DNA of 52,842 bases from an archaeon. Lineage in GTDB: Archaea > SpSt-1190 > DYHY01. Shown piece by piece: positions 16,995-49,845 of this stretch. A program made the translations under genes and the position numbers. Position 1 is the first letter of the stretch. Every line of letters begins with the position of its first letter. The stretch is taken from the NCBI GenBank assembly GCA_037442745.1, contig JBBIPP010000007.1, forward strand, positions 1 to 52,842, written 5' to 3'. Below the pieces are notes generated by a model, which was not told the origin of the DNA, searched no databases, and worked only from the letters and a program-made list of their open reading frames with translations.

Positions 16995-17314
16995 TTGTGG
17001 TGGGCGGGGCCGTTCAGCCAAGGCTGGACTTCGCTTAAGCTCAGGAATTGGCGACCATCTATTCGATAAAATTATCCGAGCCAAGGCGAGGATTGAGTCA
17101 ATATAAAAGGTCCGTTCGGAGAACGGACAACCCGTCAACGGCACGAGCGTTAGCGAGTGGGGTTGTGGTGGGCCCGGCCGGAATTGCAACAAAACTTTAT
17201 GAAAGTTTTATCAAAGAGTCCGTTGCCGGGCAACGGACGGGTTTTCTTTACGCCCGTCAACGGAGTTTTCTTTTTCAAAAGAAAAATGAGTTGTGGTGGG
17301 CCCGGCCGGAATTG
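16995..17314. repeat. three-copy array of the tRNA-Val 3' end with hairpin spacers
   Basis: GTTGTGGTGGGCCCGGCCGGAATTG exact at 17162-17186 and 17290-17314; degenerate, interrupted copy at 16995-17056. Confidence 0.85.
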
Positions 17315-17368
17315 AACCGGCGACCTTCGCAGTGTCAGTGCGACATCATACCACTAGACAACGAGCCC
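17294..17368 (-). tRNA. tRNA-Val(GAC), CCA encoded
   Basis: GGGCTCG...CGGGCCCACCA; anticodon arm TCGCA-CTGACAC-TGCGA. Confidence 0.97.
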
Positions 17369-17404
17369 GCACAGGGGAATATGCCTTTCAGGGGTTTAAA
17401 AAAA

Positions 17405-17836
17405 CTATTGTTTAAGCTTTTTTTCAAGAAGGAACCAGGTAAAGTGGAACTTGCCATCAGGAAGCTCTCCTACCTTCTCAAAGCCCATTTTCCCATAGAA
17501 TCCGAGATTTCCGTGCCTCTCAGATGTCGAGAGTTCAATTTTGTGGCAGTCTAATTCAAGGGCTCTCTTTTCAACGCCCTCTAAAATCGTTTTTCCTATT
17601 CCCCTTCCTCTCGCGCTCCTAGACACCAGGAGATCTTTCAGGTGGCAGACTCCTCCTGTGAAAGAATAATCCGCATAGCCAATTGGTTTTTTTCCTTCAA
17701 ATGCCACCAGAGTCTCTTTCTTGACTGAATATCTATATCCCTTTTCCTTGTTGAATTTTAGCCACTCTCTCCTTGCCCATAAATCTAGAGAATTGTCCTT
17801 TTTGGAAAGCCGTCTGATTGAGATCTTCTTTTCCAT
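17405..17836 (-). CDS. GNAT acetyltransferase
   Basis: LLVSRSARGRGIG acetyl-CoA motif, FYGKMGF. Confidence 0.92.
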   Translation of the reverse strand: MEKKISIRRLSKKDNSLDLWARREWLKFNKEKGYRYSVKKETLVAFEGKKPIGYADYSFTGGVCHLKDLLVSRSARGRGIGKTILEGVEKRALELDCHKIELSTSERHGNLGFYGKMGFEKVGELPDGKFHFTWFLLEKKLKQ

Positions 17837-17893
17837 TATGGTACTTTTCAGAGCAAGGCGTGTTAATAAGTTTTAAAGCAAAAATTTCAGAAT

Positions 17894-18093
17894 CGCGAGT
17901 CCCGAAAATAAAACCGCGCCTCGGGACAATTAACTTTATGGCCCGGTGGTTGAGCCCACAGGCGAAATCCCGGGACCGCGAGTCCCGAAAATAAAACCGC
18001 GCCTCGGGACAATTAACTTTATGGCCCGGTGGTTGAGCCCACAGGCGAAATCCCGGGACCGCGAGTCCCGAAAATAAAACCGCGCCTCGGGAC
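17894..18093. repeat. 83-bp tandem repeat (2.4 copies) in the tRNA-Arg(TCT) trailer
   Basis: Exact units start at 17894, 17977 and 18060; full units contain GGCCCGGTGGTTGAGCCCAC, similar to the tRNA 3' arm. Confidence 0.95.
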
Positions 18094-18096
18094 GAG

Positions 18097-18171
18097 CGGG
18101 CCCGGTGGGATTTGAACCCACGACCTACTGCTTAGAAGGCAGTCGCTCTATCCAATCTGAGCTACGGGCCC
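18097..18171 (-). tRNA. tRNA-Arg(TCT), no encoded CCA
   Basis: GGGCCCG...CGGGCCCG; anticodon arm ACTGC-CTTCTAA-GCAGT. Confidence 0.97.
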
Positions 18172-18278
18172 TTTTCGGCGAATGTCCTGTGAAAATTCCC
18201 GGTTTATAAAAAAGCCTCCTTTATTCGCTCCTTTCTACTCAAAACCTTTTTAACTACTTGAAATAAAGTAAATCCGCT

Positions 18279-20531
18279 ATGGTGGCAAAGGTCTTTTCCC
18301 ATATGAAATTAGTGGTAATTCTGGCGTTCGTTCTCTCGGCAGTCATTTTCCTTCCGGCATTTTCATCGACCCTATCGTGCTCTACTGCGTGCTCGGCCGA
18401 AAGCCTCTGCGAATGCACTGTTACTCCATGCGACTCTGGTCTATTAGTTGTCACGAACGGCTCGGCCGAAAGACAGCCAATAGGCGCCTTTTCCGTCCTG
18501 AACGGAAAAGTCTCTTTCTATTCACCTTCAAAAGGGACTTATTATGCCCAGGCCAGGTGCGGAGATGACCTCTCAAACGTTCTCCAGATAGAGGCCGGGG
18601 ATAAACCCCCAATCCATACCTGCACCTGTACGGATTATGCTAATATTGGGTGCGGAATGTCCTCCTGCCCGACGGATCAGATGCTCCGGGAGCGAACATG
18701 CACTCCTTCAGGATGCGACACCCAGTCGACCTGCGCATATTCATCTCTTTGCATAGGCGGAACAACTAGCACTGTTACTACAATTCCCTATAACTGGACA
18801 ACTCCCCAGGCCTGTGGCGACAAAATATGCTCGTCCGGAGAGAATTATTTGAACTGCTGTACCGACTGCGCCGGTTGCGAAAGGAGCTCTTGCTCCGCAT
18901 CAACTAGGATTTGCTCGGCGAAATACGACCTAATAATAGAAATGCCATCGACAATTTACAAGAGCTCCCAGTTTCTCCTGTCGACAAAGTCAGTTATCGA
19001 CCGCTCGACTAACAAGCCGGTAGACGCATATACCCTCTGCTGGCAGGCATATTGCGAAGGGAACCTAGCGGATGTCCTCGGATGCAACAAAAACGTCTTT
19101 TCAATCAAGCCCGAGGCCAAGTGCGTTGACACCTTGACCGGGCTTCTCTCAGTCTCCGGAACTCTCTATCAATACGATTATTCCGTGAAATACCTGACCC
19201 AGCTGAAAATCTCTTCAGCAGTATTCCCTTCTGAGTATGTCCTAAAGGCCGGAGATTCACTCTCTGCGTTCTCGCTCTCCCTCACTAACCTCGGGTCCGA
19301 GGCGGTTGAGCTGAAAGTCAAGTCTCTTTCCCAAGGGGTAACGATAAATTCTACGAAGTCAGAGCTGACTTTTTCGATCCCTGCCGGAGCGACCGAGAAA
19401 CTCGATTTGCATGCCCCTGCTGTTGCGGGCGAGTATTCCGTCTCAATAGGAGATTCGGCAGGCTCAGGCGAAGTCCAGACACAGAAACTAAAAGTCGTCT
19501 CCGAAGCGTTCTCAACCGGAGCGGTTCCCGAGCTTGTTCTTTCAAGGAACCCGCCCTATTCAATAGAGCCAGGAGGCTCCTTTGAGCTTGTCGCAACTGT
19601 CAAGAACGGAGGGAATTCTCCCGGAGGGTTTTCCCTCTATGCAAAGGGTTCTGCCGCTTCCGCTGTTTCTTTCTCAGAGTCCCAAATGACTCTCGCAGCC
19701 GGGGAGGAAAAAGGGGTATCGCTCAAGATTTCCCCGACATTCTCCTCCGACGGGCAGTACAGCTTGTCAATTTGCGCATCCTCAGACAGCGGAACGGAGA
19801 AATGCATCCCAGGAACGCTTGAGATAACCCAGGCGACAGGAGGGCTCTTTGACTTTACACTCTCCCGGGAAAGTGTTGAGATGGGGGTTGAAGATTCCCC
19901 TGTGGAAGTCGGAGTGAACGTTGTCTCGCGTTCGACCATGACAAGAAGCGTGCGAATGCTTTTCGAGAGCAGCTGTCCTGTCGGCGTAATAACCGAGGGA
20001 TCGTTCCTCAACTCTTCGATTATATCCCTTGAGAGCGGTTCCTACTCGAACGCGTTCAAGGTGAATTCACTCGGAAAGACGGTGTCCTGCACCCTTGCCT
20101 TGACACTCTCTGACAATTCTGGAAGCGTAAAGAAAATGCTCGAGGTCTCAATAGCTCCCTCCGCATCAGATGTCACAAAAGTGGCGGATATTGCGAGCGG
20201 AGCCCAGACAAAAATAAGCCAGGCAGAGTCGGAACTGAAGAAGATTACTTCTGCCGGAAAGGACGGCAGTGCGGTCGAATCCGCAGTGGCGAGTGCTAGG
20301 AACGCCCTTTCAGCGTGCATGGCTGAACTGAACAAGAGGAAATACGACTCTGCGGACGTTCTCTGCAAGAATGCTCTTGATTCGGCTAACGGAGCTCTTG
20401 CTGTCGCAAGATATACTGAAGAGGCATACGGTCTTGAGCCTCCGGCTGGGAACCTCAACACATACGTAATTGCGGGCGTTGTAGTTGTCCTAGTGGGCGC
20501 GGCAATGCTGACTTTTGGAAGAATTGTCTAG
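18279..20531 (+). CDS. secreted membrane-anchored surface protein (Cys-rich N-terminus, Ig-like beta domains, helical stalk, C-terminal TM)
   Basis: Signal peptide, CGDKICSSGENYLNCCTDC motif, ATVKNGG-type Ig repeats, hydrophobic C-terminus. Confidence 0.8.
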   Translation: MVAKVFSHMKLVVILAFVLSAVIFLPAFSSTLSCSTACSAESLCECTVTPCDSGLLVVTNGSAERQPIGAFSVLNGKVSFYSPSKGTYYAQARCGDDLSNVLQIEAGDKPPIHTCTCTDYANIGCGMSSCPTDQMLRERTCTPSGCDTQSTCAYSSLCIGGTTSTVTTIPYNWTTPQACGDKICSSGENYLNCCTDCAGCERSSCSASTRICSAKYDLIIEMPSTIYKSSQFLLSTKSVIDRSTNKPVDAYTLCWQAYCEGNLADVLGCNKNVFSIKPEAKCVDTLTGLLSVSGTLYQYDYSVKYLTQLKISSAVFPSEYVLKAGDSLSAFSLSLTNLGSEAVELKVKSLSQGVTINSTKSELTFSIPAGATEKLDLHAPAVAGEYSVSIGDSAGSGEVQTQKLKVVSEAFSTGAVPELVLSRNPPYSIEPGGSFELVATVKNGGNSPGGFSLYAKGSAASAVSFSESQMTLAAGEEKGVSLKISPTFSSDGQYSLSICASSDSGTEKCIPGTLEITQATGGLFDFTLSRESVEMGVEDSPVEVGVNVVSRSTMTRSVRMLFESSCPVGVITEGSFLNSSIISLESGSYSNAFKVNSLGKTVSCTLALTLSDNSGSVKKMLEVSIAPSASDVTKVADIASGAQTKISQAESELKKITSAGKDGSAVESAVASARNALSACMAELNKRKYDSADVLCKNALDSANGALAVARYTEEAYGLEPPAGNLNTYVIAGVVVVLVGAAMLTFGRIV

Positions 20532-20549
20532 CTGGGGGAGAGCTGACAT

Positions 20550-21314
20550 TTGACTGGGAAAGCGGCCGGGAAAATTCTCCTATTTTCCCTCGTTTTCCTT
20601 TTCCTTTCAACCTACTTTGGGTTCTCCTATATGAAGATAGAGCCCTCCTTTGCTAGCCTCGCTGTATCCAACAAGTCAGTCGACTTTCAGATAACAATAA
20701 TTTCAGAGCCCGGTGAGTCTAACCGTGTAGTGACCCTCTCCGCCGAATGGCCGGTTGAAGGGGAGCTCTCTTGGACGCAAAGGCAGATGATTGTAGGAAC
20801 TCGCCAATCAACGAGAATCTCCCTGACTCCCCGCACTCCCGGGGAACACTATCTTAAGCTCTCACTCTCGGGCGACGGAGTCCTGCCTCTTGAGGAATAC
20901 GCGCAAGTGACTGTCGTCTCTCCCGAAGCCGGAAAGAAGGTTTCTGACGAGCTCTCCGACTTTAAGAAGAGAATTGCCTCGGCCGAGAGGAAGCTCTCCG
21001 GGCTCTCTGAAAAGGCGTCCCAAAAGACTGTTGACCTGTTCGTTGAGACGAATTCAAGCATAGGCTTTGCGGAGCAGTTTTATTCGGAAGGAAGGCAGAC
21101 TTTGGCTGAGAACGCCCTCTCGGTTGCTCGGACGAATATGCCATCCCTCGAGGCCAGCCTCTCGGAGGAGGAAAAAAAGCACGGGATCTTTTCACTTGAT
21201 ATCGGCTTCCTTCCTTCATGGGCAAAGACGGTTTCATTCGACCTCATTATCCTGATAGTAATAGTTTCCATTATGATCGCCCTCTCCGCCAAGACTTTTC
21301 TTTTCTTGAAATGA
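20550..21314 (+). CDS. membrane-anchored protein (Ig-like domain + helical stalk + TM)
   Basis: Hydrophobic N- and C-termini; co-oriented with the upstream surface protein. Confidence 0.75.
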   Translation: MTGKAAGKILLFSLVFLFLSTYFGFSYMKIEPSFASLAVSNKSVDFQITIISEPGESNRVVTLSAEWPVEGELSWTQRQMIVGTRQSTRISLTPRTPGEHYLKLSLSGDGVLPLEEYAQVTVVSPEAGKKVSDELSDFKKRIASAERKLSGLSEKASQKTVDLFVETNSSIGFAEQFYSEGRQTLAENALSVARTNMPSLEASLSEEEKKHGIFSLDIGFLPSWAKTVSFDLIILIVIVSIMIALSAKTFLFLK

Positions 21315-21325
21315 GCCTCCTCTTC

Positions 21326-22822
21326 TCAGCCGAGGAATTTCCTGAAATTTGCCGCCCGTAGGGACAGGTCGACTAGCATTTCCTTTCCTTCGTCTAATGC
21401 CTTCCTGCCCATTTTCCTTATTGCCGAGCGTATTTTTCCGGAAATCTCAATATGCCCTTCCTCGGGTTCAATGTCAACAAGGTCAGAGAGTTTCCTTGCT
21501 AACCTCTTCCCAATGAAAGTGCCTTTGGAAAAGTCCGCGAATTTGGCGGCTTCTGCAATGTCGGGGAAAATGTTCGGATAGAAGCGCTCGAGGAAGGAGA
21601 GTTCTGACGACTCGAGAGTATCAAAAGCAACCAGTTCAGGAGGGAATCCTAGGGAATAGAGGGCTCCTGTGAATTTTATTGCCCTCGGAAGCTTTTTTTT
21701 CCCGACGCTCCTGGAATATCCCCATATTCCGACATGGAGCTTTCTCTTTCTCCTGTCGGGTATTGTCTCGGAAGCAACATTTATTCTGTCAGCAAGCCGG
21801 AGAATCTGCTTTTGGTAGCTTGCTGAATATTTGTCAAAAATCCTTCTTAGCTCGCGTTCGTCGGAATCCGAGAGCGCCTCCGCTCTTCCGGACGCAGTCC
21901 CGTCTAGCTCTTCGACGCCCCTTCTCGCTTCCCCTGGAAAATAATCGTACTTGAATGCAGACTGTATTGTATAAGTCTCAACGCTCGGATATTCCCTCAA
22001 AGTCTCCTTCACCCTCAATGGGGACAAGCCCCCCCTAAAGACGCACGAGCCGACCCCTATTATCGGATGTATTTTGACTCCCGAATCTTTTGACACCCCT
22101 TCCAGCTTTGCTAGGGCGATTTTGGCGAGTATTACAGCTCCCAAAAGGCCATAGTTCATTGCGGGATCTGACCTTGCCAGAAAGACCCTTTGGTATTGCG
22201 GATTTTTGTCAGAGAGATATTCCTTCACAACTTTTCCGATTTTAGCCAGCCTCTCCTTGTCCTCAAAGAGCGGGATTACTGAGACTTGCTTTGGGTTGAA
22301 TTCCCCGATCCAGTCCGAGACACGCTCGTTTCCTATCTTGAGGTTGCCTTTCGCTCCGACAAACTGCCGATAATAGTTGTGTATTTTGTTGAGCGCCCAA
22401 GCGGAGGTTGTCATCGGAAGGATTATCTCAAATATCGGGGCAGGGGAATCCTTGCCGTAAAAGAGCCGGGCGGTGTCAAATGACCTGGGGACGCTCTCAA
22501 GAGTCTCGAGGAGTATCTTCGCCTCGCTTTTTTCGAATTCCGGATTAGGGACCCTTGGCGTTATGAAAACGTCCTTTCCTATTACAGTCTCCCTGAAGAA
22601 CTCCGGGTATTTTGAGAGGAGCTTTTTTATGACGAAACTGTCAACTTCTTTCCCCTCATAATCCCACATCTGTTCGGTGCATCCGATGTTTGAGAACGCA
22701 TAGTAAGTCTCCCGTATTTCGTCATCCCCTCCAATAACCGGCCTTTCTGAGAAAAATGGTATTGCAACGTTGTCTGGATGCTGCGTGCTCATTGTCCGCG
22801 GTATTCTGATTTTTGCCATCAC
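21326..22822 (-). CDS. ppcA: archaeal-type phosphoenolpyruvate carboxylase
   Basis: IPRTMSTQHPDN, QMWDYEGK, RVFLARSDPAMNYG, FRGGL, LPRAIKFT. Confidence 0.96.
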   Translation of the reverse strand: MMAKIRIPRTMSTQHPDNVAIPFFSERPVIGGDDEIRETYYAFSNIGCTEQMWDYEGKEVDSFVIKKLLSKYPEFFRETVIGKDVFITPRVPNPEFEKSEAKILLETLESVPRSFDTARLFYGKDSPAPIFEIILPMTTSAWALNKIHNYYRQFVGAKGNLKIGNERVSDWIGEFNPKQVSVIPLFEDKERLAKIGKVVKEYLSDKNPQYQRVFLARSDPAMNYGLLGAVILAKIALAKLEGVSKDSGVKIHPIIGVGSCVFRGGLSPLRVKETLREYPSVETYTIQSAFKYDYFPGEARRGVEELDGTASGRAEALSDSDERELRRIFDKYSASYQKQILRLADRINVASETIPDRRKRKLHVGIWGYSRSVGKKKLPRAIKFTGALYSLGFPPELVAFDTLESSELSFLERFYPNIFPDIAEAAKFADFSKGTFIGKRLARKLSDLVDIEPEEGHIEISGKIRSAIRKMGRKALDEGKEMLVDLSLRAANFRKFLG

Positions 22823-23000
22823 TTTGTTTCAATGTCTCCTATTTATTAACCGTTCGAGGATAAAATAATCTTTTGTAAGGAATTTACTGAATTTTTCCAA
22901 CATTTTTTTTATTTCTGAGAAAATTGGCCGAGGGCGCCTTGAGTCAGGTCTTCCCAAGGAATAGATTCTTGACTGGAGAAACATCTTGCCATCCTGCGGA

Positions 23001-23075
23001 TGGCGCCTTGAGCAGGAATCGAACCTGCGACCTAGTGGTTAACAGCCACTCGCTCTACCGCTGAGCTATCAAGGC
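23001..23075 (-). tRNA. tRNA-Asn(GTT), CCA encoded
   Basis: GCCTTGA...TCAAGGCGCCA; anticodon arm AGTGG-CTGTTAA-CCACT. Confidence 0.97.
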
Positions 23076-23321
23076 AACTGGTTGAGAATGCAAAAACGCC
23101 TTTATAATAATTACCCGGCTCACTTCCGGCATCCCCGAGGAAAAGGGCTTTTCCATCTGAACGAATAAACTTCCTTGTACTGCTTTTTCTCATACATATA
23201 CGGGAAATTCTCACGCGTTGCCTAAATTACGAGGTCTGGACTCCATCATTCTCAGAATACAGGATTGAGAAATTTGGAACGTAATAAATGCGCCAAATTT
23301 TCCCCACCCTGTTTATATTTG

Positions 23322-23391
23322 TTCGCATATCGTATAAATATTACGAATAACGTATTTTACGAAGATAATTAAGGAAAAAACGATTATCGTA
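23322..23391. promoter_or_regulatory. three Lrp-type operator sites upstream of the Lrp gene
   Basis: TTCGcatatCGTA 23322, TACGaataaCGTA 23342, AACGattatCGTA 23379. Confidence 0.6.
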
Positions 23392-23410
23392 GGAAGGATA
23401 ACGCCACGAA

Positions 23411-23812
23411 ATGGCAAAGGACTTGGACAAGAAAGACAGGGAAATACTGGAAATTCTCAAGGCGGACGGTCGCAGGGGGTTTGTCTCAATCGGGAAAGCG
23501 GTTGGCTTGACTGAAGGGGCTGTTCGGGCGCGGGTCAAAAGAATGGTCAGGGAAGGGACAATTGATTGTTTCTCGGCAATAGTTAAATCAACTTTCAAGG
23601 CGCTTGTCCTGGCAAAGCTCTCTCCCAAGCTAGCCAAAGGGGCAATAGGCACAATACGCGCGTTCTCAAGGGAGATTTTCGAGACCTCCGGCAACTATGA
23701 CTTGGTTGTTTTAGTTGAGGCGGATTCCCTTGAAGGGATAAACAGGGCGGTCGACAAAATCCGTGCTGTTCGGGGAGTTGTTTCTACCAATACCCTCCTG
23801 AAGCTCGCCTAG
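23411..23812 (+). CDS. Lrp/AsnC-family transcriptional regulator
   Basis: LDKKDREILEILKADGR...VGLTEGAVRARVKRM HTH; ETSGNYDL RAM domain. Confidence 0.93.
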   Translation: MAKDLDKKDREILEILKADGRRGFVSIGKAVGLTEGAVRARVKRMVREGTIDCFSAIVKSTFKALVLAKLSPKLAKGAIGTIRAFSREIFETSGNYDLVVLVEADSLEGINRAVDKIRAVRGVVSTNTLLKLA

Positions 23813-23870
23813 GGAAGCTTCCGAAAAAAGCAAGAGATATAACCAGCCCGGCTCTTGAATTGAATTAAGA

Positions 23871-24572
23871 ATGGCTCAGAAAAACAGGAATCCTCCTGTT
23901 GCATCCACCCAGACTAATTGCCTCGCCTCAATACAAAAGAGAGTTGATTCCGAGATATATTCGAACCTCCTGCTGGAGGAAGCCCTCCTATCCGGAATTG
24001 CGAATTTCCGCTCAATTGCAAGGAAGCTCTCAAAGAAACTCCCCGGAGCGAAGATTGAGGCAATTGCCGTAGCTGTCCGGAGGCATTTCGAGAAGGAATC
24101 AGGCGAAAGAAAGTCGGCGGAGGACGCGCTTCTCCGCCTTTTGGCGAAATCGAAAATAAAGGCGACGACCGAGGTCGCTGACTTTACCCTTGAAGCCGGC
24201 GAGCGAACAGTCGCCAAGGTCTCGGAAATTATGAGGAAAATCAGCCCTAGGAAGGGCGATATATTCAGGTTCGTTTCCGGTCACAGAGCGTCGACACTGG
24301 TGGTTGACATGGAGAACTATTCCGCAGTAAAGAGGCTTGCTAGGGGCCTGATTATTAGGGAGAGGCCGAACGTCTCGGAGATTGCAATAATAACTGACAG
24401 CCAAGTAGAAGAGACTTTGGGATGGGTCGCCTTGGTCTCAAGGCTGATTGCGAGAAACGGCATAAACATGATAGAGACATTTTCCTGCTATACTGAGACA
24501 ATAATAATTGTCGAGGAGAAGGATGCCGGAAAAGTGGTGGAAATACTCTCTTCCGGGAAAAGAAGGCGCTGA
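23871..24572 (+). CDS. ACT-domain-containing protein
   Basis: GIANFRSIARK, GWVALVSRLIARNGINMIETFSCYTE. Confidence 0.8.
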   Translation: MAQKNRNPPVASTQTNCLASIQKRVDSEIYSNLLLEEALLSGIANFRSIARKLSKKLPGAKIEAIAVAVRRHFEKESGERKSAEDALLRLLAKSKIKATTEVADFTLEAGERTVAKVSEIMRKISPRKGDIFRFVSGHRASTLVVDMENYSAVKRLARGLIIRERPNVSEIAIITDSQVEETLGWVALVSRLIARNGINMIETFSCYTETIIIVEEKDAGKVVEILSSGKRRR

Positions 24573-24594
24573 ATCGCGCCTTTCCCGAGGGAAG

Positions 24595-25803
24595 ATGTTA
24601 AATTCCCTAGAAACTTCCGACCTCAAAGAGATGCTTCCCGAAAACTCCCTGTTCGCAGACCTCCATATTCATTCCAACAAGTGCGGGAATGCCTCAAAGC
24701 CCGGGGATATTTCGCGCCTTGCGGAAATTGCAAGGAGAAAGGGACTTTCGATTTTGGGAACCGGCGACCTGACGAACAAAAAGTGGAGGGAAATAGTCTA
24801 TTCGGAGACCGCCGAATCGGACGGCCTCCAATATTCCGGAAATTTTCCGTTCGTCCTCTCAGTAGAGGTTGCGACAAATGACAAGAGCCACCATCTGCTC
24901 ATACTTCCGGACAGGGCGACCGCAGACGCGCTCTTTTCTGAATTATCAGCTTTCGGGAAAATAGAGAAAATGGGCCGGCCCTTCCTTTCCCTCCCATCAA
25001 AGGAGCTCGCCCGCCTCGTTTTTTCAGTTTCCGGAAAAATCGAGCTGATTCCTGCCCATGTCTGGACTCCCCATTTTGGCCTATTCGGTGAAGGTGCGCA
25101 TTACAATTCCCTTGAGGACGCTTTCGGAGAATTCTCAGGAAAAATACGCTCAATAGAGACAGGGCTCTCTTCGAACCCGGAGATGAACAGGAGGATTGGC
25201 TTTCTCAATGGAAGGACAATTCTCTCTTTTTCCGACTGCCACGCCCACACTCTTTTGAGAATAGGGAGGGAGGCGACTGCTTTCCCGAAAATCCAATCAT
25301 ATCGGGAAATTCTCTCCTCAATAAGGAAGAACAGGACACTTGGAACAGTCGAGGTTTTCCCCGAATTCGGGAAATACCATTTCTCCGGTCACAGGGACTG
25401 CGAAATATCCCTTTCGCCCGAAAGCGAGAAAAAAGAAAAAGGAATCTGCCCAAAATGCAACAAATCCCTGACCCGGGGCGTGGAAGCTAGGGTAACTGAG
25501 CTTCAGGAAAAGAGCAGGGGGATTTTCGAGAAGGCCACAGTCAACACTCTTCCGATACCGGAGCTCGCGTCCGTTGCCTTGGGAACGGGAGTCTGCTCTA
25601 AAAAAGTCCTCTCAATCCAGAATTCCCTTGTTGAAAAGTTCGGTTCAGAGCTCTCTGCCCTGCTCTTTGCGCCTGAGGAAAAGCTTTCAGAGGCCGACCC
25701 GAAGGTTGCGAGGGCAATTGTTGCCTGCAGGGAAGGCAAAGTGTCCCTGACTCCGGGGTTTGACGGCGTCTACGGAAAGCTGGCTTTCCAAGGCCTAAGG
25801 TAG
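24595..25803 (+). CDS. endonuclease Q family PHP-domain protein (TIGR00375-like)
   Basis: ADLHIHS, LGTGD, PAHVWTPHFG, ETGLSS, SFSDCH, GKYHFSGHRDC, CPKC, PGFDGVYG. Confidence 0.92.
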   Translation: MLNSLETSDLKEMLPENSLFADLHIHSNKCGNASKPGDISRLAEIARRKGLSILGTGDLTNKKWREIVYSETAESDGLQYSGNFPFVLSVEVATNDKSHHLLILPDRATADALFSELSAFGKIEKMGRPFLSLPSKELARLVFSVSGKIELIPAHVWTPHFGLFGEGAHYNSLEDAFGEFSGKIRSIETGLSSNPEMNRRIGFLNGRTILSFSDCHAHTLLRIGREATAFPKIQSYREILSSIRKNRTLGTVEVFPEFGKYHFSGHRDCEISLSPESEKKEKGICPKCNKSLTRGVEARVTELQEKSRGIFEKATVNTLPIPELASVALGTGVCSKKVLSIQNSLVEKFGSELSALLFAPEEKLSEADPKVARAIVACREGKVSLTPGFDGVYGKLAFQGLR

Positions 25804-26877
25804 GAAATCTTTCTTCTTAATTTTCGTCGGGAGATACTCCTCCGAGACGAACTTCAAGTGCCTGCTAGCAAGGGCTTCCTGCTCGGCCTTGATTTTCCTC
25901 TCAACCATTGTCTTTAGCTCCTCTTGCCACTCCTTTGCCGCAAACCACGGATATTTCAGCATTTCCCGCGTCCTTTTCAGGTCCTGGTCTGTCGCCCTTA
26001 TTGTGTATTTCTCAAGGCCATAGTTCTCAATGTCAGCCATTGTCAGGCCAATGAATTTGGCGGAAGGGGTTGCGAACTCTTCTGATGCGTGCGCAAGGTT
26101 GATTGACCCGCTTTTTATGACTGAATAGATGTAGTATCCGTAAGCGTCGGCGTCAGTGAAAACGTAGACCGGGAGGCTCGTCTTCTGGTGGAGATTGTGT
26201 ATAAGGCGCTTCGTTCCTCTGGCCGCCTGCCCGTGCGTCCCGACAAGAATGCAGTCGTGCTTTTCCCAGAACCTGTCCTCGTTTAGCCTGTCGAATGTTG
26301 CGTTCTTCTCGACAACCATGACGAACTTGGCGTCAACCTTCTTTATCTTGATGTCTTCAACGTTCGAAGGGACTGACCATCCCCCGCTCCCCAGTTTCGA
26401 CCAGTCGATTGTGTCGCCCCTGTCCGAAATTATCACTTTTCCAGCAGCAACGCCTGAGCGGTCCGCGTTCAGGTGGAGCTGTTCCCTTAGGATGTCTAGC
26501 ATTACCTCAAGGTCGACAATAATCGGGTCCGATTCCCCCTGCTCTTCGAACGTGTTCTCGTGAGTCCCCGCAATGTTTCTTTTCAGGGAATAATAAGCTT
26601 CCCTGATTGACGCGTGTATGTCGTGCTCGACCAGTTCCTTGCAGAACGAGGAGACGAGCATTGTCTGCATGAACTTTCTCGCGTGCGCCACGTTGACGAA
26701 ATATCTCTTCGATTCCTGGCTACCGAGGGAGAGCGTTTTTTTCTCCTTGTTGAATTTGACGTTCGAGAGAGCCCTGACTGGTATTGAGACATACGGATTC
26801 TCCCCTTTTCTTATCTGTTCGGAGACTTCTCTTCCCAGTTTTTCAAGCTTTTGGACTATTGGGTTCTTGTCAGCCAT
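25795..26877 (-). CDS. top6A: DNA topoisomerase VI subunit A
   Basis: SIREAYY (catalytic Tyr), EQGESD, VVEK, TDADAYG, KAEQEAL. Confidence 0.97.
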   Translation of the reverse strand: MADKNPIVQKLEKLGREVSEQIRKGENPYVSIPVRALSNVKFNKEKKTLSLGSQESKRYFVNVAHARKFMQTMLVSSFCKELVEHDIHASIREAYYSLKRNIAGTHENTFEEQGESDPIIVDLEVMLDILREQLHLNADRSGVAAGKVIISDRGDTIDWSKLGSGGWSVPSNVEDIKIKKVDAKFVMVVEKNATFDRLNEDRFWEKHDCILVGTHGQAARGTKRLIHNLHQKTSLPVYVFTDADAYGYYIYSVIKSGSINLAHASEEFATPSAKFIGLTMADIENYGLEKYTIRATDQDLKRTREMLKYPWFAAKEWQEELKTMVERKIKAEQEALASRHLKFVSEEYLPTKIKKKDFLP

Positions 26878-26882
26878 TCTAT

Positions 26883-28586: not shown

Positions 28587-29131
28587 TCGTTTGCTTCACC
28601 GTCGAAAGCCTCGCGCCTTTTCTTGTCAATGAATTTGTAGACTGTCGCATGCATTGAGCCGGAGAGGAGTTTCTCAATTCCCTGCCTCGCTATCTCGACA
28701 GCCGTTTCAGGTCCTATGAGGCCGACCGTGTCGCCATAAACCGACATATATATCCCTAGTGTTTCCTCAAAAACCCTCCGGGATTTCCCGCCGGTTCCGA
28801 TAATTCTTGACTTGAGGCGCATTTTCGCCTTGCCGTTCTTGGCATAGTCGTCGAGGTCTATTATTGAGAGCTCGTTGTTCTCCCGGTCAACCAGGGAGAG
28901 CGCCTTTTCCGGTGAAAACCCCCTGCCAATCGCCCTTATAACATCTCTTGCCCTGTATTCGAGAAGAGGGTCTCTTTCCTCCTTATTTTCTGGTTCCAGA
29001 ATTGTTACTTGGCCGTCCCTCTCAATTTCCAGGGAAATCCTGCATCTCCTCTCAATTAGGGATTTTGTCTCCCCCTCCTTTCCAATGAGTACTGCAACCC
29101 TCTCCTTTGGGATTGCAATGAATTCAGGCAT
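28562..29131 (-). CDS. dim2: KH-domain ribosome biogenesis protein Dim2/Pno1
   Basis: VLIGKEGETK, AIGRGFSPEKA, RIIGTGGK, GSMHATVY. Confidence 0.93.
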   Translation of the reverse strand: MPEFIAIPKERVAVLIGKEGETKSLIERRCRISLEIERDGQVTILEPENKEERDPLLEYRARDVIRAIGRGFSPEKALSLVDRENNELSIIDLDDYAKNGKAKMRLKSRIIGTGGKSRRVFEETLGIYMSVYGDTVGLIGPETAVEIARQGIEKLLSGSMHATVYKFIDKKRREAFDGEANEWWQKERA

Positions 29132-29993: not shown

Positions 29994-29994
29994 A

Positions 29995-30384
29995 TTACCT
30001 GAAATCTGCCGGAACCTTTCCCCTTTTCACAAGCCAGTCCCATTGCGCCCTAGAATACCTGTAAATTAGGTCGCATTTCTTGTCCCCCTGGACCGGCCAT
30101 GGCTTCAATAAGACTAGGTCGTTCTCCCTAACCCACAGCCTTCTCGCATATTTCCCGGGGATTCTCCCTATTCTCACAAGGTTGTCAAGGCAACGGACAT
30201 ACATCTTGCTGTATCCGAGCCTCTGCTCGACAATCCCGAATGTCTCGCCCTCGACCGGGAGCTGCGTCCTTGCAATTTCCTGGGATAATGCGCTTCCCTC
30301 TCCCCCGAATTCCTGGGGGTTGAACTCATTCGAGGTCTCCGCAGTCTCCTCTCCTTTCCTTGGAATCTGAACTCTTTCACCCAT
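29995..30384 (-). CDS. eif1a: translation initiation factor aIF-1A
   Basis: GIVEQRLG, RIGRIPGK, WVRENDLVL, DLIYRY. Confidence 0.95.
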   Translation of the reverse strand: MGERVQIPRKGEETAETSNEFNPQEFGGEGSALSQEIARTQLPVEGETFGIVEQRLGYSKMYVRCLDNLVRIGRIPGKYARRLWVRENDLVLLKPWPVQGDKKCDLIYRYSRAQWDWLVKRGKVPADFR

Positions 30385-38480: not shown

Positions 38481-38579
38481 CCTTCCTGTAATTTGTTCTT
38501 TCTTTATAATTTAATGCTTTTTTTTCCTAAAGGCGCTCTTTTGGCGCCCAAAGCTCCCTAAAATGTGCGAAAATTCACA

Positions 38580-38725
38580 GGGTTCGCTGTATTTCGTCAA
38601 CCCGGAAAAGCCGGATTTCCTTTCAGCGCGAACCCTTACGGGGTTCGCTGTATTTCGTCAACCCGGAAAAGCCGGATTTCCTTTCAGCGCGAACCCTTAC
38701 GGGGTTCGCTGTATTTCGTCAACCC
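38580..38725. repeat. 61-bp tandem repeat containing the mcm 3' end
   Basis: 24-bp GGGTTCGCTGTATTTCGTCAACCC at 38580, 38641 and 38702, separated by identical 37-bp inserts. Confidence 0.95.
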
Positions 38726-40727: not shown

Positions 40728-40908
40728 GCCCGGGGTTTCTCATAGTTTATTAAAGGCTTTTTGGAGAAACTTGCCAGTAATAATTCCAGTGGAAACAGAA
40801 GAAGCGGAGGAGGCAGTGACTACTTTTGCTCTCTTTTCAAAAAATCAAGTAAACCAGATTATTTCCAGAGAAGCTGTCTCCTGACCGGCCTTCTGGAAAT
40901 GAGTTTTC

Positions 40909-41151: not shown

Positions 41152-41439
41152 CTAGAAATCAAGGATAAAGTCAGCGACCTTTTTTTTCGATTCCCCCGCC
41201 CGCTTCATTGCGGATTCAAGAAGAGTTCCCTTGAATTTCAGGGAATATTCCTTCGATGCCCCGAGAAGGCTCTGGACTTCCGGACAAGTCTTCTTCTGGG
41301 CGCAATTCCTGCAAGTGAGAGGCCCTACCATTTTTTCTCGGTTCTCCAAGGGGCAAGGGAGCTTGAACGAGAGTATTTCCGCATTCCTCTTTTCAACAGG
41401 ATCAAGGCCAGAGGAAATTGGAGGTGCCATTCCCGGCAA
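41152..41439 (-). CDS. small Cys4 (possible Zn-binding) hypothetical protein
   Basis: CP-x11-CxxC-x5-CP pattern. Confidence 0.55.
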   Translation of the reverse strand: MPGMAPPISSGLDPVEKRNAEILSFKLPCPLENREKMVGPLTCRNCAQKKTCPEVQSLLGASKEYSLKFKGTLLESAMKRAGESKKKVADFILDF

Positions 41440-41513
41440 ATGCCTGCCGGCTATTAATTGTTTTCCGGGCCAGATGGATTATAAGACAATCCGCACGCCA
41501 CTCACTTGAAATT

Positions 41514-42034
41514 TTGGATCAAGCCCCTAGAATCTATGATGTTTTCAGGAAATTCAAGCACGAATGGGCGGTTTTTGTCCTTGCATATGACCGGAAACTC
41601 GGAAGGCTCTCTGGAATTGTTGCCGGCTGGAGAATGAAATTCTCAGGGGAACCGCTCCTGTATGCGGTCTCTATTTCCAAGGAGGGATACGCCGGAAAAC
41701 TAATCCGGGAAACTGGCGAATTCGTTGTCTCAATACCTAACAAGGGGATTGAATCCGCAATAGGGGTTTTCGGAAAGAACTGTGGAGGCCGTGTTGACAA
41801 GTTCAAGGAATCCGGCCTTAGGACTCGCAAGGCGAAAATTGTCTCTGCCCCAATCTATATGATGCGAAAATAAACCCGGAATGCGTCCTTGAGCTGGAAG
41901 CGGATTCCGGCGACCACACTATTTTCATCTGGAAAGTTGTCGCGGCATACCACAATCGCGAAAAGAGGTTACTTGTCAACACGAGAAACATCCTTGAAGG
42001 CTTGTACGAATTCAAGGAGTTCCGAGCCCCCGAT
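41514..42034 (+). pseudogene. frameshifted flavin reductase-family gene
   Basis: EPLLYAVSI, IRETGEFVVSIP, VDKFKESGL in one frame; INPECVL...GDHTIFI in the -1 frame after about 41855. Confidence 0.8.
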
Positions 42035-46246: not shown

Positions 46247-46279
46247 TTTTCTTCATTCCTCACTTTATATTTTCCATAT

Positions 46280-47893: not shown

Positions 47894-48039
47894 ATCAGCG
47901 CAGTACATATTACAAGTTTCCCAGATGCGATCTGCCTGAAATGGACTTTTCGCTCTTATTCTTCCTGTTCAAATTTTCATGCGAATCCAGACCAGAATAC
48001 ATCCTGTCATGACGCTTTCCGGAAACCCTGCCGGCAATC

Positions 48040-48846
48040 TCAATTTGCCAATTCCTTCAAAAGCACCCTATGGTCGAACGCAATTTTCTTTGGCAGTTTG
48101 TTTTTCGGGAAGAACCCAAGCTCAGTTGTCTCTTCCTTCTGGAGAGTCGGCTTTCCACCAACGATTTTCCCCGAGAATACTGCAGTGACGCAGTTCGCCC
48201 CCGGATACCTCTTTCCAGAAACTATTCTCAGGAATTTCCCTATTTTTACCTTAAACCCAGTCTCCTCAAAGACTTCCCTTTTTGCCGCTTCCTCAAGAGT
48301 CTCCCCAGAATTAACATGCCCGCCGGGAAGGCACCAGAAACCCCGGTATTGGCCGTGCGCCCGTTTTTCCATTAGGACCTCTCCTTTTTCGTTCTCAATA
48401 ACAACGTCAACCGAAACAAGCGCCCACCCCTCCCTTGCCTTTCCAATGAATCCGTCAACAATCCTCTTCCTGTGGTCGAACGCAATTTTTTCCGGCAGAC
48501 TTTCCTTTGCAAACCACCTGATTTCGTCAACTTCTTCCTTCTGGAGCCTTTTCTTCCCTCCGACAATTTCAGCGAAATAGGAAAGCGCGGCAACCTCCCC
48601 CCCGCTTCCATTGAAAAGAACTCCTGAATAGACTCCAACCAGTTTCCCTATTTTTACCTTAAACCCAGTCTCCTCAAAGACCTCCCTTTTCAGGCCCTCT
48701 TCAATTGTCTCTCCCTTGACAAGTTGCCCGCCGGGAAGGCACCAGTATCCTTTCCATTTCCCGGAATGCCTTTTTTCAAGTAGAATTTTCCCATTCTTGA
48801 TAATTATTGCATCAGCGTTCGCAAACATCCTTTTCTCTGGAGCCAT
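48040..48846 (-). CDS. tandem two-domain NUDIX hydrolase
   Basis: Two GGx5Ex7REVFEETG NUDIX boxes, each domain ending IAFDHR. Confidence 0.93.
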   Translation of the reverse strand: MAPEKRMFANADAIIIKNGKILLEKRHSGKWKGYWCLPGGQLVKGETIEEGLKREVFEETGFKVKIGKLVGVYSGVLFNGSGGEVAALSYFAEIVGGKKRLQKEEVDEIRWFAKESLPEKIAFDHRKRIVDGFIGKAREGWALVSVDVVIENEKGEVLMEKRAHGQYRGFWCLPGGHVNSGETLEEAAKREVFEETGFKVKIGKFLRIVSGKRYPGANCVTAVFSGKIVGGKPTLQKEETTELGFFPKNKLPKKIAFDHRVLLKELAN

Positions 48847-49585
48847 TTGTTTCCAAGAAAAGCCACGATTCTCAAATTAAAGCGTTTCCCTTTACGGAAA
48901 AATGGGATTTCCTCTTTCAAGCTTCCAATGCCTTTTTATATGCAGAAGCTATTTTGTCACCAATCGAATAGACAGCTTCCTCCGAGAATGCAAGTCTCCA
49001 GTCCCTCGTCTTTCTAGGACAGGCGTTCAACAAGTAATTACCTTTCCTTCTTCCGTTGCGAGGCCGAGAATCAAGCAGTTGCCGAAGAAAAAAGCAAGGT
49101 GTTTCGATTTCCCGAAGCTGTCCGATCTTCTGATGTGAGTTCCTCTTCCGGAAATTCCAGAAACTTCCTTTCCGGCAAACTCCGAATAAACAGTCAGGTC
49201 AAGAATCCTCCTTTGGAAGATAGAATTCCAAAAGTTAGGCTCTTGACTTCCTCTTTCAAATCCCAAAATTTTCCGCGTATTTCGACAAGCTCTGTTTTAG
49301 GCCCAAGAGTCAAAGCAACAGTTCCTGCCCAAAAGAGAAAATAGTCTGGTTAATTTCCCTGTCGGATTTCGGCAGAGCCTAACCATTTCAGGACGTCGCT
49401 TGCGCTCAGGAACCAACAACCAGTATCCTTTCTTATTCCAGTCAATTGATCCTCCGGGGAGGATTGGTTGGAGCGGGGACCCGGAGGCCGAGCCTCCTGC
49501 GAGGTCTGGAGCAAAGGAGCGGAAGACTGAAGCGTTCTGCAATTGGCCGAAGTCTCTGGGTAAGCGAGAATCAGTAACTGGCGAG

Positions 49586-49660
49586 CGGACCCGGAGGGAT
49601 TTGAACCCCCGACCTAATGGTTCGAAGCCATTCGCTCTATCCGGGCTAAGCTACGGGTCC
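49586..49660 (-). tRNA. tRNA-Arg(TCG), no encoded CCA
   Basis: GGACCCG...CGGGTCCG; anticodon arm AATGG-CTTCGAA-CCATT. Confidence 0.97.
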
Positions 49661-49684
49661 TCGGGAAATATAGGAAACCTCTGC

Positions 49685-49693
49685 TTTATAAAA
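49685..49693. promoter_or_regulatory. bidirectional TATA box shared by divergent tRNA-Arg genes
   Basis: TTTATAAAA centred about 30 bp from both tRNA 5' ends (49660 and 49720). Confidence 0.65.
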
Positions 49694-49719
49694 AGGAACG
49701 GAAAGTTTTTTCCGGGCAA

Positions 49720-49796
49720 GGGCTTGTAGTATAGCTTGGACAGAATAGGGGCTTCCGAAGCCTCGGACCTGGGTTCGAATCCCAGCAAGCCCGCCA
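49720..49796 (+). tRNA. tRNA-Arg(CCG), CCA encoded
   Basis: GGGCTTG...CAAGCCCGCCA; anticodon arm GGGGC-TTCCGAA-GCCTC. Confidence 0.96.
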
Positions 49797-49845
49797 CAAA
49801 CTTTACGAAAGTTTGACAAAAAAGGGTGTTTGTTGTACACGCCGA
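49797..49845 (+). repeat. dispersed double-hairpin element (also at 30507 and 17191)
   Basis: CAAACTTTACGAAAGTTTGACAAAAAAGGG is 28/30 identical to 30507-30536. Confidence 0.85.

Follow-up and report, generated by a model that had tools for sequence, protein, structure and literature searches.

A probable family of protein-less palindromic insertion modules with a constant hairpin end in archaea

RAYT (Y1) transposases accompany the REP/BIME repeats of bacteria, and the GC clusters of yeast mitochondria are bordered by short fixed repeats. Rickettsia carries the Rickettsia palindromic elements (RPE) described in PMC2996958, and the archaeon Methanocaldococcus jannaschii carries the palindromic repetitive elements introduced as MJRE1–3 (Suyama, Lathe & Bork 2005, FEBS Lett 579:5281). 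Here we analysed a 52,842-nt stretch of an archaeal contig (JBBIPP010000007.1, positions 1 to 52,842; hereafter the window), which holds three copies of a hairpin that we call hp1. We consider it probable (about 0.6) that these copies belong to a family of protein-less palindromic insertion modules, with hp1 as their constant end, that propagates as DNA by a mechanism that we infer.

The three copies conform to N-AAACTTT-NNN-AAAGTTT-N' and lie at positions 17191, 30507 and 49797 (the 17192, 30508 and 49798 copies below). Searching the window with the pattern AAACTTTNNGAAAGTTT and up to two mismatches returned these three sites as six matches, because the near-palindrome is scored on both strands, against a chance expectation of 0.34 (the mean of 100 shuffles, none of which reached six). 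The hairpins are where an earlier note on this DNA had placed them, with the sequences aAAACTTTATGAAAGTTTt at 17191–17209, aAAACTTTACGAAAGTTTt at 30507–30525 and cAAACTTTACGAAAGTTTg at 49797–49815, the last two each followed by ACAAAAAAGGG. The note had also described a compensatory swap between these two copies, and over 30 nt their sole difference is indeed the closing pair, A-T at 30507 and C-G at 49797. The features of these two loci are as follows.

30507–30525, + strand: hp1 (loop ACG; A-T closing pair), within the 462 nt that separate an NMD3-like gene from aIF-1A
30526–30556, + strand: linker ACAAAAAA and hp2 (GGAGTTTTC-TTG-GAAAACTCC)
49720–49796, + strand: tRNA-Arg(CCG), its 3' end touching hp1
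49797–49815, + strand: hp1, loop ACG, closing pair C-G
49816–49846, + strand: linker ACAAAAAA and a weak hp2

That each hairpin abuts or nearly abuts a gene-end sequence, as had been claimed, holds for the 17192 copy (against a copy of the tRNA-Val end) and for the 49798 copy (against tRNA-Arg) but not for the 30508 copy, for which a search within 330 nt and genome-wide found no copied gene end. A second hairpin of unrelated sequence is clear at 17218–17238 (8 bp) and about 30535–30555 (9 bp) and weak at 49824–49846.

The source genome (G000, 1.14 Mb) contains at least 12 sites matching the pattern, while a reversed control pattern gave 0 and 1 matches. A covariance model recovered 11 full copies, one solo hp1 and four variants (about 16 in all), the variants having E-values of only 0.1–0.6 and being assigned to the family by eye; the hp1 stem is CCTTT/AAAGG in three of them and another GC-rich stem in the fourth. 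The genome-wide pattern and covariance-model search that the note had proposed therefore found further copies. Three of these lie on the source contig, at 52980 (−), 53062 (−) and 69717 (+), so the observation that all copies are on the + strand stands for the three in the window but fails for the contig. Relative to adjacent genes the orientation is mixed: the 49798 copy is sense, those at 30508, 52980 and 53062 are antisense (the 30508 copy to both the NMD3-like and aIF-1A genes, which are on the − strand), and others lie between convergent or tandem genes. Orientation does not track the neighbouring genes, which argues against a simple terminator. The replication-strand bias that had been suspected could not be shown: orientation and local GC-skew sign agree at 10 of 13 loci, short of significance, and the orientation of contigs is arbitrary.

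Pairing within the hairpins is maintained. Of 121 distinct loci, 106 can form the closing pair, where base frequencies predict 48.5, and hp1 is thus a structure under selection. In the source genome and a second genome, G001, all 16 copies pair at this position (GC 8, CG 5, AU 2, GU 1), and five of the eight hp2 pairs have changed on both sides. At 105 distinct loci in other genomes, in an alignment that had been fitted to the covariance model, 95.5% of cells are paired versus 78.8% in shuffles and all eight hp2 pairs show change on both sides. The stems contain 18 G.T/T.G and 15 A.C/C.A pairs, so neither strand is favoured. Rfam contained no family matching the motif at gathering scores for the window, or at E-values up to 1–5 for 23 loci.

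Two hairpins make up the module, and hp1, its constant end, marks the end of the mobile DNA. The module consists of hp1, with a stem of 8 bp and a loop of 3 nt, the linker N-A-Y-C-A-A-A, hp2 and often more hairpin modules, has a total length of 60–190 bp and encodes no protein. Pairing is kept in hp2 while its sequence varies and is unlike hp1. The junction between hp1 and the flank is imprecise, with 0–6 filler bases, and the tails vary among copies. Copies in the source genome are single or tandem; in the genome G041 the modules have been recombined in differing orders and orientations, giving mosaic and inverted arrangements.

The tRNA-Val locus of the window contains the following features.

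17110–17161, + strand: older unit lacking hp1, comprised of an hp2-like hairpin, CCCGTCAACGG and a spacer, between the flank and D1
17162–17186, − strand: D1, a displaced 25-nt 'echo' of the 3' end of tRNA-Val, from the T loop through CCA, with CAAC in addition
17191–17209, + strand: hp1 with an 8-bp stem, ATG loop and A-T closing pair
17210–17217, + strand: linker ATCAAAGA
17218–17238, + strand: hp2, GTCCGTTG-CCGGG-CAACGGAC
17239–17289, + strand: tail, a 'tRNA-trailer' module made of CCCGTCAACGG and then a T/A-rich hairpin
17290–17368, − strand: D2 (17290–17314) joined to the intact tRNA-Val(GAC) (17294–17368)
17168–17295, no strand: 128 nt (module and one repeat copy) missing from a relative of about 94% identity, the empty site

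D1 is identical to 17290–17314, and with a 1-nt indel the repeat extends to 17190. The tail module is also found beside at least five other tRNA genes or contig ends. The source genome yielded no full-length donor for the 17192 insert, the inner flank of which resembles a variant of the local trailer of foreign origin. In the relative, 17167 is joined to 17296 with one letter between, so that exactly 17168–17295 is skipped; this joint was seen in one long contig of each of the records X3 and X4, which are equally long and may be one data set, and the older unit lacking hp1 is present in the relative's contig too. Other joints from the same search, 18098 with 30508 (opposite strands) and 17272 to 18105, have sides of 20–34 letters and were set aside, as were three skips with equally short sides that fall between or inside stretches bearing tRNA genes.

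Many copies are flanked, as at tRNA-Val, by a direct repeat of the adjoining gene end, 11–75 nt in length and ending 0–6 nt before hp1. The duplicated target is a tRNA 5' or 3' end or the start or stop of an ORF, and because the module lies between two copies of the gene end, one intact copy of the gene is left. Such repeats were found at 6 of 10 loci in the source genome (two of them short and weak), at all six loci in G001, at 3–4 of four loci in the genome G039 and at 14 of 110 loci in other genomes, where 0.8 would be expected. Four of the 10 source-genome loci (the 30508 and 49798 copies included) and, at our threshold, 96 of the 110 others had no detectable repeat, so either duplication is not obligatory or short repeats were missed. 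The 30508, 49798 and 53062 copies and the site C9:13400 also had no distant partner repeat in the genome. Both the 30508 and 49798 copies are absent from the orthologous loci of G001; at 30508 the genes of the two genomes are 73% identical, and the spacer has diverged too far to give the borders of the insert. At one locus in a Methanocaldococcus-like genus, g36 (17 genomes searched, 12 loci aligned), three sites are filled and two are variant, while four genomes are empty and keep a single copy of the 54-nt repeat. Here the two repeat copies of one genome resemble each other more closely than do the outer copies of different genomes. The empty sites in relatives show that these are true insertions.

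A composite element extending from 49798 (+) to 52980/53062 (−) was rejected because surE, a Toprim protein gene and dnaG lie between. An apparent insertion of hp1 alone (about 20 nt) into an existing CAAAAAA behind tRNA-Arg is a single case at 84% identity and may be due to chance. The 'recoded' gene end at C3:12314 (AAG AAG TGA vs AAA AAA TAA) may come from an imported allele, but mutation under selection with gene conversion limited to the repeat core explains it equally well.

The same hp1 and linker were found at over 121 loci in a scan of species genomes, with about two chance matches by our estimate. Among the matches listed, 70 of the 80 title-bearing loci are archaeal and come from many phyla, in which hp1 sites occupy ORF starts, ORF stops and intergenic positions. 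Five genomes of the genus g36 each gave 16–28 BLAST matches to the hp1-linker-hp2 core. Viral contigs contributed 40 loci, many of them in AT-rich giant-virus bins where a match may be due to chance; in some viral contigs hp1 is placed as an intercistronic signal would be, after a stop codon and ahead of the next ribosome-binding site. In two other archaea (2 of the 121 loci) aragorn places the module within a predicted intron, of tRNA-Ala and tRNA-Pro, respectively. The main texts of the literature searched did not describe the hairpin or the gene-end duplications in archaea, and the motif strings appeared there solely in unrelated primer or barcode text.

The search for a partner enzyme covered the draft source genome, which is 94.5% complete, so a partner gene could sit in the missing part, a virus or a plasmid. 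Neither PF01797 (Y1 transposase/RAYT) nor PF07282 (TnpB) had a match in it, so the tnpA, tnpB or RAYT genes whose proximity the note had proposed to check have no candidate there; PF00078 (reverse transcriptase) had no match there either. As a control, PF01797 matched in six of 14 named genomes. M. jannaschii, whose genus is rich in modules, had no match in this control or in that for PF00078. PF00589 gave two matches in the source genome, both on other contigs: a fragment and one long tyrosine-recombinase ORF that adjoins tRNA-Cys, a gene that also has a variant module some 270 nt away. None of the 26 ORFs neighbouring modules in the source genome encodes a transposase, integrase or recombinase, and once redundant contigs and tandem repeats are set aside the genome contains neither a dispersed repeat reaching 500 bp nor a multi-copy IS.

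The earlier note had likened the hairpins to single-stranded DNA ends read by an HUH Y1 enzyme, as in IS200/IS605 derivatives or REP/RAYT. A stable hairpin of conserved sequence at the extreme end of the unit, mosaic hairpin modules in G041 like those of REP/BIME arrays and G.T versus A.C counts that suit DNA over RNA are consistent with this, and the linker includes ATCAA, the complement of the ISDra2 target TTGAT. We nevertheless regard such an enzyme as very unlikely: the Y1 and TnpB families are absent from the source genome and M. jannaschii is outside the Y1-positive controls, long target duplications exist, hp2 is unrelated in sequence to hp1 so that a single enzyme would not read both ends, the flank beside hp1 has no constant tetra- or pentanucleotide and varies by copy, and copies on one contig point in both directions. 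The repeats could instead be the att core of a tyrosine integrase, the modules being attL/attR scars, shrunken or cis-mobilisable remnants with hp1 as an attP arm. Repeats built from gene ends and from 3' or 5' segments of tRNAs, with the gene-side copy keeping the gene intact, would be expected of such scars; the tRNA-Val repeat begins in the T loop, a classical attB position; and the recombinase ORF by tRNA-Cys, the recombinase fragment and the foreign-like inner flank point the same way. Against this, all 12 pattern-matching sites lack an integrase in their vicinity, a single arm would be common to 10 or more targets within a 1.1-Mb genome while their cores and repeat lengths differ, both orientations to the target gene occur among 14 tabulated cases, the filler bases make the junction imprecise, and in many phyla hp1 is found at ORF ends and between genes. 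Nor was a full-size element with hp1 at its border encountered, the interval from 49798 to 52980 containing surE, the Toprim protein gene and dnaG, and we judge att scars unlikely.

A host signal copied by local duplication, whether a promoter (GAAAG-TTTNAYCAAAA being BRE/TATA-like), a terminator (hp2 with a T run behind it, read on the opposite strand) or a hairpin for RNA 3'-end formation or processing, would account for hp1 lying sense directly after tRNA-Arg(CCG), the NurA stop codon and the ArgRS stop codon, and after several tRNAs in other archaea. It would also fit T3–T6 after hp2 on the opposite strand, a reverse linker 22–29 nt (hand-counted) before the tRNA-Ala start, the place of a TATA box, and the intercistronic position in viral contigs. 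Yet the orientation is inconsistent, as the antisense 30508, 52980 and 53062 copies and the sense 49798 copy demonstrate, copies are missing from orthologous sites in close relatives, a promoter would not need stem covariation, G.U is not in excess over A.C as in a one-strand RNA, and Rfam has no such family; this makes a host signal quite unlikely. The two predicted tRNA introns would favour an RNA-level element akin to bulge-helix-bulge introns, excised and circularised by tRNA splicing and re-entering as RNA or cDNA. We hold this to be highly improbable, given that the source genome has no reverse transcriptase match and M. jannaschii is negative in that control, that the folded pre-tRNA at the locus L100 of one other archaeon has no canonical 3-4-3 bulge-helix-bulge, that the window copies lie outside tRNAs and that wobble pairs show no strand asymmetry. 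Less unlikely, though still tentative, is that a repair or replication enzyme common to all archaea, for instance a Holliday-junction resolvase or Mre11-Rad50, reads hp1 and ATCAAAA as a cruciform or single-stranded hairpin, with modules, which would need no dedicated transposase, cut out and pasted or else template-switched into gene-end breaks. Staggered breaks would then give the long, variable duplications that rebuild the gene, and recombination between the duplicates would make insertion reversible.

In the reading that we prefer, protein-less insertion modules spreading at the DNA level, the modules would act as DNA palindromes rather than as one-strand RNA and would spread without an enzyme of their own. 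Likely routes would be that hairpin-bounded DNA is captured or copied where breaks are staggered or forks stall at the ends of genes, and that a piece containing module and gene end undergoes Campbell-type recombination via the conserved gene end; template switching and small-circle recombination are likewise suggested by the anatomy. Later gene conversion between the repeat copies may keep them similar, and recombination between them could delete the module precisely. Some observations sit less well with this reading: an exact 17–20-nt hairpin and linker across phyla better fits recognition by a specific protein, none of which was found, than a purely passive process; the predicted tRNA-intron modules hint at an RNA-level life; and the position between stop codon and ribosome-binding site in some viral contigs resembles an intercistronic signal.

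If it is correct, a single gene-less family of hairpin inserts is common to archaea as different as tiny symbionts and methanogens, landing at the ends of tRNA and protein genes and rebuilding them on arrival. This would explain the many tRNA-end 'echoes' in small archaeal genomes, which confuse the annotation of tRNAs and integration sites, offer a possible source of non-canonical tRNA introns and in-frame palindromic inserts, and point to a route of DNA mobility on host enzymes alone.

Among known systems, MITEs, which have terminal inverted repeats in common with a partner DDE insertion sequence and a fixed-length target duplication, differ from the modules, whose ends are unlike each other, whose repeats range from 11 to 75 nt and whose genome has no multi-copy IS. 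IS200/IS605 elements are likewise common in archaea and have end hairpins without terminal inverted repeats, but their end hairpins are alike, they require TnpA (Y1) and they insert beside a fixed 4–5-nt target without duplicating it; the modules have unlike hairpins and long target duplications, and TnpA had no match in the source genome. The attL/attR sites of SSV-, pNOB8- and pTN3-type integrases share direct repeats of tRNA parts, an intact tRNA and an inner flank supplied by the insert; in contrast, the modules are 60–190 bp and gene-less, combine many targets with one arm hairpin, use 5' and ORF ends too, occur in both orientations and have no integrase nearby. The mobile GC clusters of yeast mitochondria (PMC4478555) are also short, hairpin-forming, protein-less mobile DNA whose movement is unsettled, but they belong to a eukaryotic organelle and have another sequence. 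RPE (Ogata et al. 2000) and REP/BIME resemble the modules as small palindromic units that form mosaics, as the modules do in G041, are tolerated at or in genes and have no enzyme of their own. Both are bacterial families without sequence likeness to the modules; RPE inserts in frame without long duplications, whereas the modules are flanked by 11–75 nt of duplicated gene end, and REP has a Y1 (RAYT) gene, of which none was found in the source genome. By their published descriptions, MJRE1–3 are similarly short palindromes without protein, many per genome, mostly intergenic and some intragenic, and they come from the genus in which the hp1-linker-hp2 core gave 16–28 BLAST matches per genome. 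The paper on them reportedly contains no account of cross-phylum spread, a covarying end hairpin, long gene-end duplications or proof from empty sites. The MJRE/RPE-type definition, short multi-copy non-coding palindromes between or within genes, fits the modules, which occupy 12 sites in the source genome, or about 16 if variants are included.

We found all three hairpin sequences where the earlier note had placed them. The pattern AAACTTTNNGAAAGTTT, with up to two mismatches, occurs at only three places in the window, which give six matches because the near-palindrome counts on both strands; none of 100 shuffles of the window reached six (mean 0.34). The copies at 30507 and 49797 have 30 nt in common, their sole difference being the closing pair, A-T versus C-G, while the copy at 17191 has the loop ATG and the linker ATCAAAG. 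A genome-wide search revealed further copies: the SpSt-1190 genome (1.14 Mb, 20 contigs, 94.5% complete) carries the hairpin, an 8-bp stem with a 3-nt loop, at 12 places and not just three; the reversed control pattern gave 0 and 1.

Sites of the terminal hairpin (C numbers are contigs; C7 is JBBIPP010000007.1)
C3:12314, terminal hairpin
C7:17192, + strand, terminal hairpin; second hairpin at 17218–17238, 8 bp
C7:30508, + strand, terminal hairpin; second hairpin at about 30535–30555, 9 bp
C7:49798, + strand, terminal hairpin; second hairpin at 49824–49846, weak
C7:52980, − strand, terminal hairpin
C7:53062, − strand, terminal hairpin
C7:69717, + strand, terminal hairpin
C8:57848, terminal hairpin
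C9:13400, terminal hairpin
C10:63705, terminal hairpin
C10:63776, terminal hairpin
C14:57, terminal hairpin

The + strand placement noted for the three window copies holds for them and does not extend to the contig, on which 52980 and 53062 are reversed. The second hairpin expected after each copy is present at the first two and only weakly so at 49824–49846. Abutment on a gene end likewise stands in part: the 17192 copy abuts a 25-nt copy of the tRNA-Val 3' end (17162–17186, repeated at 17290–17314) and the 49798 copy starts one base past tRNA-Arg(CCG); a copied gene end was sought for 30508 and none was found.

In an alignment of the copies from this genome and its congener, full copies follow a common plan, or module, of terminal hairpin, linker N-A-Y-C-A-A-A(A)n-G and second hairpin; in the last, GTTT/AAAC is conserved on the inside of the stem and the outer pairs vary. 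All 16 copies keep the closing pair paired (GC 8, CG 5, AU 2, GU 1), five of the eight pairs of the second hairpin show changes on both sides with 80.5% of cells paired, and neither any of 500 shuffles nor any slid control reaches the covariation score. A covariance model trained on these 16 copies recovers 11 full copies (E ≤1e-6), the solo terminal hairpin at C10:63777 and four weak matches (E 0.1–0.6) that have the same plan as judged by eye. The terminal stem is compensated (CCTTT-ACG-AAAGG) in three of the weak matches and GC-rich, of another sequence, in the fourth; two of the four make up a tandem D-E-D-E-D array at C10:60645–60787 with the stem CCTTT/AAAGG, a 78-nt period and a 16-nt repeat, CTCCATTTGCTTTTTC.

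Several matches per genome were found, among 41 relatives, only in the SpSt-1190 genome (12) and its congener (4). When 17 genomes sampled from the phylum were searched for the hairpin-plus-linker pattern, these two had eight and six matches and two members of another family had one apiece; controls had none. Scanning one genome per prokaryote species with AAACTTTNNNAAAGTTTNAYCAAA gave at least 121 stretches, where about two would be expected by chance (our own arithmetic from database size, not tool output). Among the 80 titled matches listed, 70 are archaeal and 10 bacterial; the archaeal carriers include Methanoperedens, ANME-1/Methanophagales, Methanosarcinales, Methanocaldococcus, Methanobrevibacter, Methanobacterium, Nitrosopumilaceae, Nitrosotalea, Bathyarchaeia and the Woese-, Nano-, Aenigm-, Nanohal- and Altiarchaeota. 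In 106 of the 121 distinct loci listed, the base just ahead of AAACTTT can pair with the one that follows AAAGTTT, against 48.5 expected from base frequencies (CG 45, AT 40, GC 11, TA 9); the compensatory change first noticed between two window copies is therefore a general rule. When 105 distinct matches were fitted to the covariance model, 95.5% of cells were paired (shuffles 78.8%) and all eight pairs of the second hairpin were double-changed, in an alignment that leans towards that model. In a subfamily from DPANN-type and Methanosarcinales genomes the second hairpin is replaced by a conserved hairpin of about 95 nt; of its 32 predicted pairs, 13 stay paired with both sides changed. No Rfam family matches any form of the module. 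The strict conservation of terminal hairpin and linker across phyla suggests that a protein may read them; no such protein was found.

We then compared the sequence before the terminal hairpin with that after the module. A direct repeat, D, stops 0–6 nt before the hairpin and recurs 60–186 nt later. It is present in 6/10 SpSt-1190 loci (37, 25–29, 22, 14, 12 and 11 nt, the 12- and 14-nt ones being weak), the exceptions being 30508, 49798, 53062 and C9:13400; in 6/6 loci of the congener (14–28 nt); and, imperfectly, in 3–4 of four loci of G039, a complete genome from another phylum (26–54 nt). Elsewhere an abutting repeat was found in 14/110 loci, with 0.8 expected from 550 mismatched pairings; those of another carrier genome, G041, measure 12, 17, 25, 30, 30 and about 75 nt. 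The repeat is the end of the neighboring gene.

Gene ends copied in the direct repeats (L numbers are loci of other genomes)
tRNA 3' parts: tRNA-Val in SpSt-1190; tRNA-Glu and tRNA-Arg elsewhere
tRNA 5' parts up to the D loop: tRNA-Ala on C8; three tRNAs of the congener
ORF starts including the ribosome-binding site: L035 of G039; L069
ORF ends including the stop codon: 65-aa ORF on C3; ArgRS on C10
RNase P RNA gene end: L130

The gene is always left whole by one copy of D. Both module directions relative to the gene occur among the 14 cases with a named gene; by our own tally the intact gene copy lies on the second-hairpin side in 10 and on the terminal-hairpin side in four. In two other archaeal loci, L100 (364–486) and L105 (349–522), ARAGORN predicts tRNA-Ala(CGC) and tRNA-Pro(TGG) whose predicted introns, 51 and 98 nt, are made of the module. 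At Methanoperedens-type loci (L053, L054, L063, L080, L087 and others) the module starts right after ATGAA or ATGAT. Its far end is a third hairpin, and the 3' arm of that hairpin restores TTTATGAA or TTTATGAT ahead of the true gene start, with GGGG or AGGT 8–10 nt upstream; the start codon is thus duplicated.

Empty sites were sought in the contigs of a relative over 16600–31200. To the left of the 17192 module this relative differs at 35 positions in 568 nt (about 94% alike), and it joins 17167 to 17296 with one letter between. The 128 nt skipped are exactly the 103-nt module plus one 25-nt repeat. The records from the two runs with these contigs are equal in length and may be one data set, and are therefore counted as one observation. 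The same relative covers the 30508 copy. The congener lacks the 30508 region, its spacer being 172 nt versus 583 nt, and has no terminal hairpin behind the orthologous tRNA-Arg gene pair. Among 17 genomes searched in the Methanocaldococcus-like genus of G039, five gave 16–28 BLAST matches to the module core. Twelve loci aligned from one orthologous spacer between two membrane-protein genes comprise three filled, two variant, four empty and three with other sequence; the empty ones lack the insert and carry the 54-nt D only once. In filled spacers both D copies have lineage-specific changes in common. From genome to genome the outer D copies are about 30% divergent, yet the first D copy and the terminal hairpin meet at an identical junction. 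This pattern of sequence change suggests that a single insertion took place long ago and that gene conversion between the D copies came later. Our data show that the modules are small, mosaic, hairpin-bounded pieces of DNA that come and go at orthologous sites between duplicated gene ends.

The earlier note had likened the hairpins to ssDNA ends read by HUH enzymes with replication-strand bias. This reading was not borne out: neither Y1_Tnp (PF01797) nor the TnpB zinc-ribbon domain (PF07282) had a match in the SpSt-1190 genome, and IS200/IS605 and REP/RAYT elements lack the long target duplications, the dissimilar second hairpin and the 0–6 filler bases at the junction. M. jannaschii was not among the control genomes matching PF01797, and a replication-strand bias of module orientation could not be shown. 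A retro-element was rejected, no reverse transcriptase being found in the genome, as was a DDE MITE, since terminal inverted repeats are missing from the module, the direct repeats vary in length and the genome has no IS-sized dispersed repeat. Nor does orientation track transcription, as it would for the simple terminator that the note had allowed for, or for a promoter: a copy may be sense, antisense or mixed with respect to the genes beside it, which are ordinary housekeeping genes (LysRS, aIF-1A, RIO kinase, NMD3-like, NUDIX, SurE, DnaG, L10e, NurA and ArgRS). For the tRNA-linked copies, scars of an integrase are possible; against this, no recombinase lies near any copy, the sole long tyrosine-recombinase ORF sits next to tRNA-Cys on C12, the same arm hairpin goes with many different cores, and the module occurs in both orientations.

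The palindromes probably act as DNA. Among stem pairs, 18 G.T/T.G versus 15 A.C/C.A favor neither strand, unlike RNA. Because the unit ends at hairpin feet and its junctions are untidy, hairpin-protected fragments, or polymerase switches at hairpins, would fit better than a precise transposase, and the variable duplications of 11–75 nt would be in keeping with staggered breaks, or with a template switch to a position behind the departure point. Gene ends, tRNA genes above all, are plausible stalling sites. The recent 17192 insert has no full-length donor in the genome, and its inner part is a "tRNA-trailer" module that recurs next to at least five other tRNA genes or contig ends. This makes the insert look like a cassette, imported or mosaic, composed of tRNA end, trailer, second hairpin, linker and terminal hairpin. 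Were module plus D to form a small circle, a single crossover in the conserved D would yield exactly L-D-module-D-R. Such a circle would come from recombination between both D copies of any filled site, which would also explain the precise empty sites and the concerted evolution of D copies.

Other repeats were observed in the window. Two and a half 83-bp tandem units, each a degenerate tRNA 3' part plus a hairpin, lie at 17882–18093 directly behind tRNA-Arg(TCT) (18096–18171, − strand); the contigs of the 94% relative leave 17549–18022 uncovered. Three 61-bp tandem units at 38567–38749, each with the small hairpins GCGAACCC-TTAC-GGGGTTCGC and CCGG-AAAAG-CCGG, may form a further array of hairpin modules. 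A 42-nt sequence is repeated exactly, in direct orientation, at 33443–33484 and 33558–33599 (spacing 115 nt), and a single ORF with two NUDIX domains (48040–48846) has a matching internal 162-nt repeat of 72% identity (48214–48375 and 48622–48783). Just beyond the window end (C7, about 52900–52940), a run of N starts within the second of the two tandem 82-bp module units at 52980 and 53062; their repeated piece, beginning GGGCCTATAGTCC, may be the start of an RNA gene. On other contigs, a variant form of the module together with a duplicated tRNA 5' part immediately precedes tRNA-Cys (40791–40864) on C12, followed by a tyrosine-recombinase match (41416–41901) inside a 427-aa open frame; C12:40521–41901 may be a true integrated element. 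The C9:13400 module touches the NurA stop codon, and just downstream of it a D12-class adenine methyltransferase is split into ORFs of 95 and 224 aa (C9:12284–13268). The tRNA-Ser(GGA) region C7:1896–2131 is 97% identical to C6:31517–31747, and C1 (13.8 kb) duplicates C6:73921–87788 at 99.8–100% identity, probably by assembly redundancy.

In the literature searched, we found no account of a covarying terminal hairpin common to archaeal phyla, of long variable gene-end duplications with empty-site proof or of modules without any partner enzyme. The hairpin feature is real, and the modules belong to the protein-less palindromic mobile repeats, a known kind. Compared by short descriptions only, the nearest described elements are MJRE1-3, palindromic repetitive elements of M. 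jannaschii (PMC2229807, PMC2996958), and next to these come the Rickettsia palindromic elements and REP/BIME repeats.
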